The notes under the pieces are model-generated. The model was not told the origin of the DNA. It searched no databases and saw only the letters and a program-made list of their open reading frames with translations. From positions 580,919 to 644,918 of the forward strand of contig JAHPZA010000003.1 in NCBI GenBank assembly GCA_019058445.1: 64,000 nt of DNA. Reading direction: 5' to 3'. The DNA comes from Promethearchaeota archaeon. GTDB taxonomy: Archaea; Asgardarchaeota; Lokiarchaeia; Sigyniarchaeales; SOKP01. The translations under genes were made by a program, and so were the position numbers. This document shows, one piece after another, positions 55,339-61,461 of this stretch. Positions within the stretch are counted from its first letter, which is position 1. Every line of letters starts with the position of its first letter.

Positions 55339-56871
55339 TTAAAATTTATCTTCATCCTTGTACCAAGCTGGATACCAGCGATAGTAATCTTCCGGGAACG
55401 CTTTTTTTAGACCCTCGTAAGTTGCTTTTACTAATGCGATTTTACCATCTCGGTCGCGATTGGTAGCGATTAACTTCTTTTCTTCAAGGCTTTCAAAGGT
55501 TTTTCTAATTGCTGAGCGACTGCCGCCTATATCTTGTCTTACATCATCAGGAGTCATATAAAGACCTGGATTAACTTTATAGTCATGTGCAATCACCTTT
55601 AAAATATTTTCCTCATTTATCTCTAATCCTTTAAATTGAGATTCCTTTTTTGAGACAAGAGGAGCGTTAACCTCATCATTCCAACGTAGTCTCATAGGTT
55701 CATTATTCTCTGGCAACATAGAGGCAAAACGGTAGATTATCATCTTTTGTATTTCAGAAGTCCCTGCGACAATTTCGCCGATTTTTCCTTCTCTAACAAT
55801 GCGTTCTGCTCCATAGAATTTAGTAAGTCCATCTCCACCCATTGCTTGTACCGCTAAAAGCCCAGCATCTCTCACATATTCACTAATGAACCATTTTGCG
55901 ATGGATGCATTAATCATAGGTTCTTGTCCGTCATCCAATTGTTTGGCACAATTATAAGCGAAAACGCGTCCCATTCTGTATTTGGCAATTAATTCTGAAA
56001 TTTGGTTTTGAACTCCAGGGAATTGGTTAGTGGATCTCCTAAATTGAACCCGCCTCTTGGTATAATAGAATAATAGCTTAATAATGTCTTTAATTACTCC
56101 AACATATACTGCACCTGCAATAAGGCGTTCGAAATTTAAACCCGCCATCATTACGTTCCAGCCTTTGCCTACGGCTCCAACCCGATTCTCATCAGGAATT
56201 CTAACATTATTAAATGATAGATATGTGTTAGGTACATTATCGAATCCAATTAAAGGATTTACTCTTTCCAAATGAAATCCTGGCAATCCTTTTTCAACGA
56301 TAAAAGAAGTGATATGAGAATACTGCTTACGATCAGACTTGTCTTCACTGGTTTTCGCATAAATAAAATAGCGATCAGAAACACCACCACCAGTGATATA
56401 TCTTTTCTTACCATTAATTATCCACTCATCACCTTCTTTCACGGCCGTAGTCATGACATTCGCAGCGTCAGATCCTGCATAAGGCTCAGTAATACAAACA
56501 GCACCTAATTGGTCTCCACTTGCCATTTGAGGTAGCCATTTCTGTTTTTGCTCCTCTGTAGCATATCTTAACATTTGTTCTAAACCAGCAAGCATAGATA
56601 CTACAAATACATGACCGACTGAATAAAGCCTTCCTAGTGCTTCCGCAACGATACATGAACCCGTGGCACCCAATTCTAATCCACCATATTCTTTGGGAAT
56701 TCCTGCTCCAAAATATCCTTCGGCAGCAACTTTTTTCACTAAAGGCCAAGGAAATTCTTGTTTCCAAAAGAAATATTCAGCATCTTCAAAATTCTCATCG
56801 ACAAACTGATTTACTTTCTTGGAAATTGCCTTTTGCTCCTCAGTCCACCAAAAAAAAGTTTCATCACTCAT
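55339..56871 (-). CDS. Acyl-CoA dehydrogenase with C-terminal winged-helix extension
   Basis: ITEPYAGSD, NGKKRYIT, RVQF, MGGDG, GTSEIQK; extra ~125-aa C-terminal region. Confidence 0.9.
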   Translation of the reverse strand: MSDETFFWWTEEQKAISKKVNQFVDENFEDAEYFFWKQEFPWPLVKKVAAEGYFGAGIPKEYGGLELGATGSCIVAEALGRLYSVGHVFVVSMLAGLEQMLRYATEEQKQKWLPQMASGDQLGAVCITEPYAGSDAANVMTTAVKEGDEWIINGKKRYITGGGVSDRYFIYAKTSEDKSDRKQYSHITSFIVEKGLPGFHLERVNPLIGFDNVPNTYLSFNNVRIPDENRVGAVGKGWNVMMAGLNFERLIAGAVYVGVIKDIIKLLFYYTKRRVQFRRSTNQFPGVQNQISELIAKYRMGRVFAYNCAKQLDDGQEPMINASIAKWFISEYVRDAGLLAVQAMGGDGLTKFYGAERIVREGKIGEIVAGTSEIQKMIIYRFASMLPENNEPMRLRWNDEVNAPLVSKKESQFKGLEINEENILKVIAHDYKVNPGLYMTPDDVRQDIGGSRSAIRKTFESLEEKKLIATNRDRDGKIALVKATYEGLKKAFPEDYYRWYPAWYKDEDKF

Positions 56872-57094
56872 CTTATATTCCTTTTATAATTAGTTTTAAA
56901 CCAAAATTATTGTAATTTTTGATTTTAAGTATTACGTATGTAAAATTTTCATTTTTGATAAATCTTAAAGTTTTATAGTTCGATTTTTTTACATTTCTCA
57001 CTGACAATTATGTTATTGCTCTTTAGATAAAATTAATTAGAAGCATATTCTTATTTTAAATTTACATATAATATAATCCCAGAAGTAAGAGCTG

Positions 57095-58720
57095 ATTGAA
57101 ATATCTATTCCAGCATCCATTCGAGAAGGTCCTCGAACTACAAATACCTTAGTCAAGAAAAGATATTTAATTCTATATTTTACTTTAATTACAGTAAGCT
57201 CTCAACCTACATTATTATGGTTCTGGTATTTTTGGCAATTATTTCCAAAAGAAAGTATTCTTTTCTTTATATTCTTCCCTTTAGCGTTTCTTATTGGTGT
57301 CATAATTTTAATTATAAGTTCAATAATTATTGCCAAATTCTTTCTTTCTATTATAAATACAATTCATAAACCTAAAGAGGGAATCTTTAACAGGAATAAG
57401 AAAGATAAAGATTATTGCTATTGGAGTATGAGAAATATCATCAAAAAGTGGCCTTTATGGTTGACAAGGCAATTAAACTTACCACTTCTTGAAACACTCG
57501 CACTTAAAGTTTTGGGAGTAAAATCCTTTAAAATTAACTGTGTTAATGGGGGCTGGCTTGATTGTGAGTTTATTGAATTTGGAAAAAATATTAAAATTGG
57601 CCAAGGAAGCATTATCATGTCTAATATTATAATTAGAGATAGACTAATGATAAAAAAAGTGGTGTTAGAAGATAATGTAATCGTTGGCGCTCACTCTGTT
57701 GTCTGTCCGGGAACGATAATTAAAAAAAATACAATCCTTGATGCGCTTTCAATGACTTCAATAGGTCAAGTGCTCGAAAATGATTCTGTCTATAGGGGCA
57801 CACCAGCAAAGAAAACCATGAATAACCAACCAATTGCAAATATAGATGAGTTAGAAAAAGTCATATTTACACAAAAAATTAAGAGTAGAGAAGAAAATGA
57901 GGATTTAAGGACTGATATGAAAGAGATGTCAGTTCCCTTTCATGTGTATATCCTCTCAGGATGGTGGATCATGGGAGGCTCTTTTATTATCCCGGGATTT
58001 TTGTTCTTTATATTTATGTATTGGTTATTAATTCCAAACCTGTTTTCAAACCCATTTTCTTTAATTCTCTTATTAAACTTAGAGATTATCCTCATTATTT
58101 TACTTACACCAATCATCCTCATAGGAATATACTTACTACACTTATTTTTTGTAGCATTATTTACAAGCATTTTTTACCATTTCGCTGATTACAGAGGTCC
58201 GGCACAAGGGATCTTTGACAGGAATTTAAATGAGCATTGGAAAGCCTTAGATTATTATCATTGGCGATCCTTTCTTTTAAAATATCCTGTATTTGTATTT
58301 CTCAGATCTCCTTTTCCTTGGCTGCTGAATTGGGAACTAAGATTTATTGGCTCAAATAAAATAGGGAAGGGTACTGTATTTGAAGAGTGTTTCATTCATT
58401 CGCACTTAAATTTCGGGAACAATTGTTATATGGGTACATTTGCCCATATCAGCAATCACATGGTTGATGGTGTGTATGGCACCGAAAATTTAACGTTTTA
58501 TGGTGCAAAAATAGGGGATAATTGTGTATTTAATGCCTTAATTGGGGGAATGCCCGGCTTAGAGGTAGGTGATAATGCCACCTTTTTACCTATGGCAACT
58601 ACTATAAAATATGATAAGATGGAAGACAATGGAATCTATATAGGTTTTCCTGCGCGTAGATTGAATAAAGAAACAGCAAAAAAATTTATAGGTGAAGAGT
58701 TTCATGACAGCGGAGAATGA
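57095..58720 (+). CDS. Membrane protein with two TM-hairpin + LbH (hexapeptide) acyltransferase units; start extended to a non-canonical codon at about 57092-57107
   Basis: Frame open from TAA 57086-57088 with no ATG/GTG/TTG before 57428; the extension IHKPKEGIFNRNKKDKDY is homologous to the downstream gene. Confidence 0.78.
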   Translation: MEISIPASIREGPRTTNTLVKKRYLILYFTLITVSSQPTLLWFWYFWQLFPKESILFFIFFPLAFLIGVIILIISSIIIAKFFLSIINTIHKPKEGIFNRNKKDKDYCYWSMRNIIKKWPLWLTRQLNLPLLETLALKVLGVKSFKINCVNGGWLDCEFIEFGKNIKIGQGSIIMSNIIIRDRLMIKKVVLEDNVIVGAHSVVCPGTIIKKNTILDALSMTSIGQVLENDSVYRGTPAKKTMNNQPIANIDELEKVIFTQKIKSREENEDLRTDMKEMSVPFHVYILSGWWIMGGSFIIPGFLFFIFMYWLLIPNLFSNPFSLILLLNLEIILIILLTPIILIGIYLLHLFFVALFTSIFYHFADYRGPAQGIFDRNLNEHWKALDYYHWRSFLLKYPVFVFLRSPFPWLLNWELRFIGSNKIGKGTVFEECFIHSHLNFGNNCYMGTFAHISNHMVDGVYGTENLTFYGAKIGDNCVFNALIGGMPGLEVGDNATFLPMATTIKYDKMEDNGIYIGFPARRLNKETAKKFIGEEFHDSGE

Positions 58721-59732
58721 AAAAACTCAAGGTCCGCATGAAAATTCAGTGGATATTGCTAAGTATCCAATTACTACCAATGTATTCGCGTGGTCACCCG
58801 CTTCAATTTTAATTTATTTATTATTACACATCTTTTCTTTTTTGATACCTTCTTTAATGATATTAACATTTTATTCTGGTGCACTTGATTTTGATCTTAT
58901 ATCAAATTGGTGGAGAATCCTTCTTATTTTTTTAGATATAATGGTATGGTGGTGGATTTATTTATTATCGGGGCTACTCTTAGGAAAATTATTATTGATT
59001 ATACTCGGATTAATTCATAAACCAAGAGAAGGTTTATTTAAAGTAGATAGGAATGATAAAGACTATTACTATTACTGCCTACGATATACCATAAAAAAAT
59101 TCATTTTCTGGACATGGAACAATTTTTGCTTTCCTTGGGTGTCCAACTTAGCTTTTAAGATCTGTAATATGAGAGCGGATTTTAAATCTACGATGTTCGA
59201 TGGATGGAGTGATTTAGAGTTTATTGAATACGGAAATAACATCATGATTGGACAAGGTGCGGTCGTACTTTCAAGTATGATCATAGGAGATCATTTTTTA
59301 ATTAAAAAAGTAATCATTGGAGATCATGTGGTTTTAGGAGGCAATTCAATTGTGAGTCCCGGGACAGTTATTGGCAGTGGAACTACTTTAGGAGTATGGG
59401 CAAGCACTCACATAGGACAAATATTAGAATCAGACTGGATTTATATTGGAAGGCCCGCTAGAAAGTTTAAGCAAACGAAAATCATTTATGAAGAGAGTAA
59501 AAAAGAAAGTGAAGTTGGTACCTTTAGACGGTTGGTCGATACAAACGAAAAAGCTCCACATACTGTAAAACGATATGTTAAGAAAGACATGGTAGGGATT
59601 GCAATAGATAATTTAGAAAAACTCTACGAAAAATGGAAAGAATCAGTAGAAGTGAAAAATAAAAAAGAATTAAAGAAGAAGTATAAGAAAAGTAAAAGAG
59701 AAATTAAAAAGAAGCAATTTAATGAGGTATAA
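58704..59732 (+). CDS. Membrane protein with one TM-hairpin + LbH acyltransferase unit
   Basis: IHKPREGLF..DKDY, hexapeptide repeats VIIGDHVVLGGNSIVSPGTVIG, G.PAR; overlaps the upstream gene. Confidence 0.82.
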   Translation: MTAENEKTQGPHENSVDIAKYPITTNVFAWSPASILIYLLLHIFSFLIPSLMILTFYSGALDFDLISNWWRILLIFLDIMVWWWIYLLSGLLLGKLLLIILGLIHKPREGLFKVDRNDKDYYYYCLRYTIKKFIFWTWNNFCFPWVSNLAFKICNMRADFKSTMFDGWSDLEFIEYGNNIMIGQGAVVLSSMIIGDHFLIKKVIIGDHVVLGGNSIVSPGTVIGSGTTLGVWASTHIGQILESDWIYIGRPARKFKQTKIIYEESKKESEVGTFRRLVDTNEKAPHTVKRYVKKDMVGIAIDNLEKLYEKWKESVEVKNKKELKKKYKKSKREIKKKQFNEV

Positions 59733-59882: not shown

Positions 59883-60581
59883 ATGGTATCAACTCTAGGT
59901 TATCTTGATGGCCTTACGGCTACAGGTATTATATTGTCTGCTGTTATATTCGGTCTTTTGTCTTTTCATTCCGCCAGAAAATTGGATGCTAGACTCCTAG
60001 CTGTGGCAGGGGTGATGATGATCTTTATAGGACTTTTTTGGTTAGGACCTTTTGTTGATTTTCTTTCAATACTATTTACAGGTAAAAATATAAGACCTAT
60101 ATACGTTTATGGTTGGTTATCCTATGTCTGGGTGGCTCCTGCGATCATCGTATCCATGTACCTAGGTTCTGAGCTTTTGGTTCCGGAAAAAAAGAAGATA
60201 GTAATAGCAATTTACGCAATATTGGGTATAATTTTTGAATTTCTTATTTTTCTAGACGTATCAGGAACTTTTACATTTACGCTAAACAATCCCGGTCAAG
60301 ATACAATTGACTCCAGCTTTAATCGAACCTCTCCCACTTATTGGATCATTATCTTTTTTCTAATCTCAACATTGATATTTGAAGGTTTTGGTTTTGCGAT
60401 TAAAGCTAAACAGGCAACTGGTGAAATACGGAAAAAATTCACTTTTCTATCAATTGGTTTCATAGTATTCGTAGTATGCGGTGCTATTGACTCGATTTTA
60501 CCTTTAGGAGTTGCGATTGGATTTAGCAGAGCGGTAATGATGTCGTTTTCATTGTGGATGTACCTTGGTCTTAAGACATAA
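59883..60581 (+). CDS. Stand-alone 7-TM membrane protein
   Basis: Seven hydrophobic segments in 232 aa; no soluble output domain. Confidence 0.8.
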   Translation: MVSTLGYLDGLTATGIILSAVIFGLLSFHSARKLDARLLAVAGVMMIFIGLFWLGPFVDFLSILFTGKNIRPIYVYGWLSYVWVAPAIIVSMYLGSELLVPEKKKIVIAIYAILGIIFEFLIFLDVSGTFTFTLNNPGQDTIDSSFNRTSPTYWIIIFFLISTLIFEGFGFAIKAKQATGEIRKKFTFLSIGFIVFVVCGAIDSILPLGVAIGFSRAVMMSFSLWMYLGLKT

Positions 60582-60760: not shown

Positions 60761-61461
60761 ATGGTTTCTCAAATGGGTTTATTAGATGGCCTAACTGCCT
60801 TAGGAGTTATTATCTCTTCTCTCATCTGTGGTTCCTTATCTATTTACAATTCAAAAAAACTGGATGCAAAACTCCTTTATTATCAGGATTATCAATGGTT
60901 TTATCAGGTTTATTATATCTGGGACCTGCTACTGATTTTATCTTAGTCTTAACAACTGGAAAAAATATTAGGCCGATATATTGGTATGGAATTTTAAGTT
61001 ATATGTGGGTAGGAGCATCAATACTACCATCTATGTACGTAGGTGCTGAACTTATAGCTCCTAAGAAAAAGAAGGTTATATTAGTAATATATCTAATTTT
61101 AGGTTTAATTTTTGAAGCATTCTTATGGTTAGATACTTCAAATGCGTTTACTTTCACGCTTGGCACCCCAGGGGAAGATTTAATTGACGCAAGTTATAAT
61201 CGGAATCATCCAACTTTCTTCTTTATCGCATTTTTTCTTTTGTCAGTTTTTATTTTTCTAGGAATAGGTTTTCTTGTAAAAGCTAAACAAGCCACTGGTG
61301 CAATAAGAAAAAAATTCATATTGATGTCTTTAGGATATTTAGATTTTGTAATTTGTGGGATGCTGGATTCTTTATTTGCTCCGGGTATAATGCTGTTTTT
61401 TGTTAGACTTGCAATGATGGGCAGTTCATGGTTAATCTATATTGGATTAAAACCGGGATAA
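60761..61461 (+). pseudogene. Frameshifted paralog of the 7-TM protein (or a sequencing indel)
   Basis: ORFs 60761..60946 and 60895..61461 together align to 59883..60581; one base is missing near 60876-60879. Confidence 0.75.

Follow-up and report, generated by a model that had tools for sequence, protein, structure and literature searches.

A split, conserved set of membrane-anchored beta-helix units related to the Pls/PosA polymerisation domain in Lokiarchaeia, with a putative non-ATG start codon

In a stretch of 64,000 nucleotides (the window; positions 580,919 to 644,918 of contig JAHPZA010000003.1, assembly GCA_019058445.1) from a Promethearchaeota archaeon (Asgardarchaeota; Lokiarchaeia; Sigyniarchaeales; SOKP01), two overlapping genes, here called gene 1 and gene 2, encode three copies of one membrane-anchored unit (Table 1). 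Each unit consists of a transmembrane (TM) hairpin, a short strand with the motif [KR]P.[EQ]G.F, two helices and a left-handed beta-helix (LbH) domain with the sequence G.PA[KR]. The three units can be aligned over their full length, together with those of paralogues and homologues, and among the invariant columns are a G (that of [KR]P.[EQ]G.F), an R and a P in the linker, and G, D, PG and Y.G.P..K in the coil region. AlphaFold2 models of gene 1 (predicted local distance difference test (pLDDT) 86.4, predicted template modelling score 0.84, from 44 sequences) and gene 2 (pLDDT 76.8, from 43 sequences) have the same order of elements in each unit, namely two long helices, a short strand at EG.F, two helices and the LbH coils. 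Over both genes the models contain six TM helices and three LbH domains, so that the arrangement given in the original prediction, which was made from the sequence of the window and placed two units in gene 1 and one in gene 2, is borne out by both the unit alignment and the models. A crude hydropathy scan with a threshold of 1.6 missed the first TM helix of unit 1, which is rich in aromatic residues. The hexapeptide-repeat model PF00132 scored 38.5 bits on gene 1, above its cut-off of 27, and 24.5 bits, slightly under the cut-off, on gene 2, the homologues of which carry PF00132 in precomputed annotation. The sequences before the first and after the second helix of the hairpins are rich in K and R, and the hairpin loops are short and acidic or neutral; by the positive-inside rule, the LbH domains would therefore lie on the cytoplasmic side.

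Table 1. Features of gene 1 and gene 2, in window coordinates (secondary structure elements from the AlphaFold2 models)
Feature	Position	Strand	Details
Gene 1	57101..58720	+	539 aa; C-type unit fused to A-type unit; putative ATA start, TGA stop
Gene 2	58704..59732	+	342 aa; single B-type unit
TM hairpin 1, gene 1	57158..57364	+	helices at residues 20-47 and 53-88
Linker motif HKPKEGIF, gene 1 C-type unit	57365..57388	+	strand 94-97, then helices 103-125 and 128-137
LbH domain 1, gene 1	57551..57823	+	residues 151-241, coils; GTPAKK end (57797-57814); PF00132
TM hairpin 2, gene 1	57938..58195	+	helices at residues 280-315 and 321-365
Linker motif RGPAQGIF, gene 1 A-type unit	58193..58216	+	strand 370-373, then helices 377-401 and 408-416
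LbH domain 2, gene 1	58358..58660	+	residues 420-514, coils; loop N452 H453 .. D456 G457, then GFPARR
TM hairpin 3, gene 2	58797..59015	+	helices at residues 32-61 and 70-104
Linker motif HKPREGLF, gene 2	59016..59039	+	strand 110-113, then helices 119-139 and 144-153
LbH domain 3, gene 2	59223..59474	+	residues 174-257, coils; with GRPARK (59448-59465)
C-terminal long helix, gene 2	59589..59726	+	residues 296-341; K/E-rich; length varies among orthologues
Shine-Dalgarno-like CTGAT	57092..57096	+	4 nt 5' of the gene 1 start
Shine-Dalgarno-like AGGTGA	58689..58694	+	inside the end of gene 1, 9 nt 5' of the gene 2 ATG

No stop codon interrupts the reading frame of gene 1 between 57089 and the TGA at 58718-58720 (543 codons), and the frame has no ATG, GTG or TTG 5' of the ATG at 57428. 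The 113 codons upstream of this ATG encode the first TM hairpin and HKPKEGIF..DKDY, the module that also opens gene 2, and therefore the original prediction was right to extend gene 1 upstream; the start codon proposed there, ATT at 57095, gives way to the ATA at 57101, two codons downstream, to which homology points. Orthologues align to gene 1 from residues 2-3 through 537. Among 30 orthologous loci, including that of the window, the codon at this position is ATT in 23, ATA in four, ATC in two and ATG in one, and it directly precedes the conserved sequence S-I-P-[AS]-S-.-R-.-G-P-R-T-T-N. An in-frame stop codon is found 0-25 codons upstream (the commonest distance being 4), and in 26 of the 30 loci there is no ATG, GTG or TTG between that stop and the conserved codon. 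Most of these loci have AGTGAT 4-8 nt 5' of the codon, and the window has CTGAT at 4 nt. The 3' end of the 16S rRNA of this genome reads ...GGATCACCTCCT, and GTGAT shows a peak 3-7 nt 5' of ATG among 2306 long open reading frames (ORFs) of the genome, suggesting that the AGTGAT-type element is a Shine-Dalgarno site. We infer from these comparisons that gene 1 starts at the ATA at 57101, a position with a conserved ATT, ATA or ATC codon in 29 of the 30 loci. Two other explanations of the frame were rejected: the GTG within AGTGAT is not the start, as its distance to the ATT is not constant (9, 10, 11 or 13 nt), and the run TTTTAAAA is not conserved, which speaks against a -1 slip there. A contig of 361 nt from a different sample in the same study is identical to 57066-57426, and a single-unit C-type paralogue in this genome (contig C9) has ATG at the equivalent position. 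Public calls for relatives of gene 1 start at internal Met codons (417, 461, 486, 499, 507 or 508 aa, compared with about 537 aa); with a non-ATG start, such calls would be short of 30-120 residues at the N-terminus, a TM helix among them. The putative conserved non-ATG start is new here, and it also offers a clean way to test non-AUG initiation in Asgard archaea. For gene 2, the most likely start is the ATG at 58704, which has AGGTGA 9 nt 5' of it and from which the public gene call (P0003, 342 aa) is 100% identical, and the two genes therefore overlap by 17 nt.

To describe the units in other loci, we typed them by their best match to six reference units. The 137 units from 39 loci fell into types A (47), B (47) and C (43), and none was ambiguous. 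A fused C-A gene followed by a B gene was found in all 31 orthologous loci, and in the 30 best loci gene 2 always lies 3' of gene 1 on the same strand, so that the expected conservation of the gene pair is confirmed. In paralogous sets, each of A, B and C has its own gene, or a fused A-B gene is followed by C, and a lone A-B was found beside such sets. The cyclic order A>B>C was never broken in the typed loci, with fusion points that give C-A+B, A+B+C or A-B+C. Single chains also occur: P0243 (797 aa, Promethearchaeota, five cluster members) has three matched unit stretches, and P0125 (808 aa) continues from a gene-1-like into a gene-2-like sequence. The genome of the window has A, B and C as three genes on contig C9 (256.0-258.8 kb; L039 10028-12756), and A and B units only on contig C3 (264.4-266.2 kb; L040 9434-11233). 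The three fixed unit types, their cyclic order and the shifting fusion points are new here. Cluster look-ups of ten further single-unit representatives returned almost no names.

We then modelled the complex of whole gene 1 with residues 1-285 of gene 2, each with its own alignment. The complex score was 0.80 (0.79, 0.80 and 0.82 in three runs), and the best of three controls scored 0.00; contacts agreed among the runs by at least 78%, with a partner pLDDT of at least 75. When this score was calibrated, 116 of 157 solved complexes and two of 215 mismatched pairs reached the mark. In the model, gene 2 packs against the coils of both gene 1 LbH domains and against TM helices, and the A-type loop 455-465 of gene 1 (residues 455-461, 463 and 465) is part of the interface. 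The model thus predicts a 2+1 pseudo-trimeric assembly, in agreement with the three-LbH unit that had been proposed.

Both the typing and the complex model bear on a simple alternative, namely that these are ordinary independent O-acetyltransferases anchored in the membrane, neighbours by chance, each forming its own homotrimer. Such a reading would suit the public annotation ('acyltransferase' or 'isoleucine patch superfamily') and the two-unit locus at about 264 kb of contig C3. It does not suit three paralogue types in a fixed cyclic order, the shifting fusion points, the three-unit single chains, or the score of 0.80 against 0.00 for the best control; moreover, gene 1 carries two different units in one chain, and therefore a homotrimer of three LbH domains is not possible. 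We regard this alternative as very improbable.

Each unit type keeps polar residues of its own. The H, P, G and F of HKPKEGIF are kept in at least 93% of the 43 C-type units; types B and C have invariant HKP.EG.F, W.D.EF and GQG; type A has invariant H133, E174, H199 and N209 (unit numbering), and the loop N452 H453 .. D456 G457 of gene 1 is invariant in the family (A type, alignment A3). These type-specific residues argue for catalysis or specific binding, and they stand against a role of the LbH assembly without catalysis, or without acyl transfer, for example as a gamma-carbonic-anhydrase-like membrane module, a scaffold or a transporter accessory. What speaks for such a role is that the gamma-carbonic-anhydrase subunits of mitochondrial complex I, heterotrimeric on a membrane arm, are among the sequence matches, although these matches are limited to the LbH coils (E 1e-5 to 1e-8). 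Gamma-class carbonic anhydrases have three conserved His zinc ligands at the subunit interface. In the coil region of our units, the His residues kept in at least 93% of units are H200 in type C, H199 in type A and none in type B, and therefore there is no three-His metal site. A non-catalytic or carbonic-anhydrase-like assembly is accordingly an unlikely explanation.

With regard to the relation to poly-amino-acid synthetases of the Pls/PosA type, to which the epsilon-poly-L-lysine synthetase Pls and the delta-poly-L-ornithine synthetase PosA belong, TIGR02353 was the top NCBIfam match of both proteins (50.6 bits for gene 1 and 37.4 bits for gene 2). The model is of the equivalog_domain class, with 695 positions and a curated cut-off of 423.1 bits, and the matches are confined to its positions 107-226, that is, its first LbH. 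TIGR02353 gave weak matches in 14 of 14 control genomes, and the match taken alone is therefore unspecific. The three-unit single chain P0243 scored 54.3 bits, and by score none of the three proteins comes near membership of TIGR02353. NCBIfam and Pfam searches found no AMP-binding or PP-binding domain in gene 1 or gene 2. The three tandem units of a TM pair and an LbH domain that mark the Pls/PosA type are present, spread across two genes.

A unit profile (A2; 13 units, 265 positions) run against 1.84 billion representative proteins gave 6465 matches at E<=1e-3, 857 at E<=1e-10 and 114 at E<=1e-30. Among the best 150 matches was P0367 (1713 aa; E 2.8e-28), which is a bona fide Pls/PosA synthetase (TIGR02353, 471.1 bits; adenylation model, 392.2 bits) and was matched in three stretches, the first of which covers positions 21-257 of the 265. 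A second protein of the nonribosomal peptide synthetase (NRPS) type, P0384, behaved in the same way, and the hidden Markov model (HMM) of the C type alone scored 60.1 bits on the first unit of P0367 (positions 27-250). In an hhalign comparison of the unit alignment with a single Pls-type sequence, only the LbH part was aligned (96.8% probability), so that the match in the TM and linker parts is one seen with HMMER alignments and type-specific HMMs. For soluble LbH enzymes of solved structure, the match begins no earlier than position 147 of the profile and is limited to the coil part. The match over nearly the whole unit indicates that the two genes share a superfamily with the Pls terminal domain; the relationship is real at the superfamily level, and the genes fall outside the Pls/PosA family as it is defined. 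The original description as a Pls-like terminal module therefore holds for homology and not for TIGR02353 membership. Its separation of the proteins from ordinary O-acetyltransferases is upheld, because the unit profile reaches Pls/PosA-type and stand-alone proteins through the second TM helix and the linker. An ORF of 364 aa on the minus strand of contig C4 (335.5 kb), listed as the genome's best TIGR02353 match (46.2 bits), is built differently, with several N-terminal TM helices and one C-terminal LbH.

Searches of the PDB with sequences and profiles, and with the gene 1 model in Foldseek, did not find a Pls-type membrane domain; the matches were soluble LbH enzymes and gamma-carbonic anhydrases only. 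The paper on PosA (PMC10522769) presents an AlphaFold model with the same elements as our units and states that there was no experimental structure as of 2023. Our literature search for a cryo-EM structure of Pls, for TIGR02353 and for Asgard hexapeptide transmembrane acyltransferases found nothing relevant, nor did we find in it a description of this split system.

The distribution of the system was examined with gene 1 as the query in 301 genomes of the phylum (E<=1e-10). Some form of it is present in all 68 genomes of the family to which the window belongs, in all seven of the sister family and in the single genome searched from each of two additional families in the class. In the rest of the phylum, matches were weak (1e-11 to 1e-15), with the exception of one genome. 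The fused gene 1 orthologue (E<=1e-160) is found in 40 of the 68 genomes and the remainder have paralogous forms; in some genomes three or four LbH sets lie within about 25 kb. The homologues are 55-87% identical and come from genomes named Promethearchaeota or Lokiarchaeota. The system thus occurs in every family genome searched, frequently in more than one copy, yet its annotation does not go beyond 'hypothetical protein' or 'acyltransferase', and for this reason it may mark a hitherto unrecognised modification of the envelope or of lipids in Lokiarchaeia, in the archaeal group closest to eukaryotes.

The donor of the group to be transferred was approached through neighbouring genes and through carrier proteins. 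We compared the neighbourhoods of 13 ortholog loci (18-20 kb) and eight paralogue loci, with Pfam searches on representatives. No adenylation or carrier domain is adjacent in the 13 ortholog loci, as had been noted for the window and as holds for the genes themselves. Carrier domains (PF00550) were detected in 10 of 71 family genomes and in four of the 36 high-quality ones, with 11 of 14 known genomes positive as a control. The genome of the window has a single carrier gene (81 aa), with homologues in four of 101 genomes of the class. None of the 38 ANL-type matches in the genome passes the cut-off for NRPS adenylation domains (best, 199 bits; cut-off, 317.4 bits). The carrier gene belongs to a cluster on contig C10 (291-297 kb; L053 3181-9252) with an AMP-binding enzyme, a fusion of iron-dependent alcohol dehydrogenase and LuxE, a LuxC acyl-CoA reductase and a weak phosphopantetheinyl-transferase-like gene. 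This cluster adjoins PIG-L, GNAT and glycosyltransferase genes and is rare in the class.

These results are difficult to reconcile with a true Pls-like polymerase, which would make an amino-acid homopolymer and be fed by an adenylation enzyme and a carrier protein encoded elsewhere. The only studied relatives of the units are polymerases, and the genome does hold one pair of AMP-ligase and 81-aa carrier; the LbH system is, however, present in 68 of 68 genomes against carriers in 10 of 71, the carrier of this genome is itself rare and lies in the LuxC/LuxE cluster, and no NRPS-type adenylation domain above the cut-off was found in the genome or next to the 13 loci. The co-occurrence with carrier or adenylation-thiolation (A-T) proteins that had been suggested as a check is therefore largely lacking, a trans-encoded A-T protein is now unlikely among the donors originally considered, and we think a polymerase of this kind improbable. 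Given that a phosphopantetheine carrier was not detected in most genomes that have the system, the most likely donor would be a CoA thioester, and acyl-CoA would be the simplest one for the gene 1/gene 2 enzyme. The test of this system against carrier proteins is new here.

The scarcity of carriers would also agree with a transferase or polymerase that uses aminoacyl-tRNA, or is otherwise independent of thioesters, on an LbH scaffold with a new donor. An AlaX-like trans-editing gene adjoins paralogous sets in two genomes, but it lies on the opposite strand among unrelated genes, and the nearest solved folds (AntD, maltose O-acetyltransferase and Pcryo_0619) are those of CoA-dependent acyltransferases. 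We know of no LbH enzyme that uses aminoacyl-tRNA, and we give this possibility little weight.

Taken together, the products of the two genes are probably the two chains of a single LbH acyltransferase, embedded in the membrane and pseudo-threefold in build, in the superfamily of the Pls/PosA C-terminal polymerisation domain; the genes are a real, conserved, split relative of that domain, free of A-T domains. Gene 1 would supply the C-type and A-type units and gene 2 the B-type unit, and the three TM hairpins would form a six-helix bundle. Above it, the three cytoplasmic LbH domains would be packed round a pseudo-threefold axis and joined via the conserved [KR]P.[EQ]G.F strands. An acyl (or aminoacyl) group would be taken from a cytoplasmic thioester, most likely a CoA thioester, and handed to an acceptor that is bound at the membrane part or passes through it, so that the gene products may carry out acyl transfer or polymerisation. 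Gene 1 would be translated from the conserved AUU, AUA or AUC codon behind the Shine-Dalgarno-like element, and gene 2 by translational coupling within the overlap.

Several points weigh against this explanation. No partner gene is conserved across genera in the 13 ortholog and eight paralogue loci. The argument for a CoA donor depends on carriers that were not found, in part in incomplete genomes, and that for the non-ATG start on sequence comparison. LbH trimers are textbook structures and are well represented among solved ones, so that part of the complex score may reflect likeness to solved homotrimers; its calibration is only roughly valid, because our own alignments were used. The set on contig C3 with A and B only suggests that the stoichiometry may not always be A:B:C. 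Finally, we know of no activity, substrate or product of any member of the superfamily that lacks A-T domains, and, to our knowledge, the mechanism of the Pls domain is unsolved, with no solved structure found.

A bolder extension, which we offer tentatively and consider rather less probable than not, is that the six-helix bundle is a conduit rather than an anchor. The complex would then be a carrier-independent, CoA-fed machine for transmembrane acylation or polymerisation, assembling or decorating a membrane or extracellular molecule specific to Lokiarchaeia, with its dosage set by the conserved AUU start codon. It would represent a free-standing, ancestor-like form of the Pls polymerase, and the several A/B/C sets in a genome would make or modify different products.

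Other genes around the sets were also recorded. Upstream of gene 1 in the window and divergent from it, a gene for an acyl-CoA dehydrogenase (510 aa; 55339-56871, minus strand) directly adjoins gene 1 in seven of the 13 ortholog loci. Its C-terminal extension of about 120 aa gives weak winged-helix-like matches (TFIIE_alpha, E 0.005; TrmB, 0.079), and the protein may be an acyl-CoA-sensing regulator. In one other genus, three 3-hydroxyacyl-CoA dehydrogenases and a short-chain dehydrogenase/reductase (SDR) lie near the gene 1 locus. These dehydrogenase and SDR neighbours are too weak a basis for naming a substrate. Downstream of gene 2, two tandem paralogous membrane-protein genes on the plus strand (59883-60581 and 60761-61461) have no Pfam family; the second of them is broken into two overlapping ORFs (60761-60946 and 60895-61461), which looks like the effect of a frameshift. 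A gene for a 131-aa CxxCxxCC protein (PF03692) adjoins the set on contig C9 and sets in four other genomes. In islands of about 25 kb (L054-L059; genomes G049, G207, G264, G156 and G109), LbH sets lie amid genes for heliorhodopsin, UvdE UV-endonuclease, DUF1295 and DUF6512, together with a C-N hydrolase, a zinc-dependent alcohol dehydrogenase and the AlaX-like gene, and no common logic is evident.

Several known systems can be compared with gene 1 and gene 2. The AUU start codon of bacterial infC is conserved across many species, and the putative start of gene 1 resembles it as a non-AUG Ile codon kept across many species. It differs in belonging to an archaeal membrane-enzyme gene behind a Shine-Dalgarno-like element, without known autoregulatory logic. 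If the six-helix bundle is a conduit, the Asgard complex would be an LbH-based counterpart of transmembrane acyltransferases of the MBOAT and HGSNAT types. With the soluble homotrimeric LbH acyl-CoA transferases (AntD, maltose/galactoside O-acetyltransferases, QdtC and the WcaF type) the units share the LbH coils and the C-terminal G.PA[KR]. The best solved-structure match is AntD (E 3e-13 by profile and 7e-06 by Foldseek); such matches span only about the last 110 of the 265 profile positions, with a TM-score on the query of at most 0.22. The soluble enzymes have three identical chains and no TM hairpin and linker module.

Stand-alone membrane LbH proteins of bacteria (651-683 aa) likewise have three units and no A-T domains. 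Their TIGR02353 scores of 157-184 bits lie between those of Pls and the Asgard proteins. Two of them, P0361 and P0371, are named Elusimicrobiota, and P0371 has P.[KR]EG.F after the second TM helix. They differ from the Asgard pair in being bacterial single polypeptides with less differentiated units. In a metagenomic protein of 960 aa (P0337), an SDR (ketoacyl-reductase-like) domain precedes a three-unit Pls-like membrane domain, a fusion which hints that some stand-alone members may have acyl or keto-acyl compounds as substrates.

The C-terminal polymerisation domain of Pls/PosA itself has the same three repeats of TM hairpin, strand with two helices, and LbH, six TM helices, pseudo-threefold packing in models, and sequence homology across nearly the whole unit. 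The Asgard genes differ from it in their archaeal host, in having no adenylation or carrier domain in cis or nearby, and in the division of the set over two genes, or three in paralogues. Their units have also diverged into three fixed types with no one-to-one match to the repeats C1-C3: for each of the three repeats in the bacterial proteins, the C-type HMM gave the best match, and types A, B and C therefore cannot be equated with C1, C2 and C3. A split version free of A-T domains, with three differentiated subunits, may offer a simpler handle on the catalytic interface and on the role of the membrane bundle in Pls/PosA.

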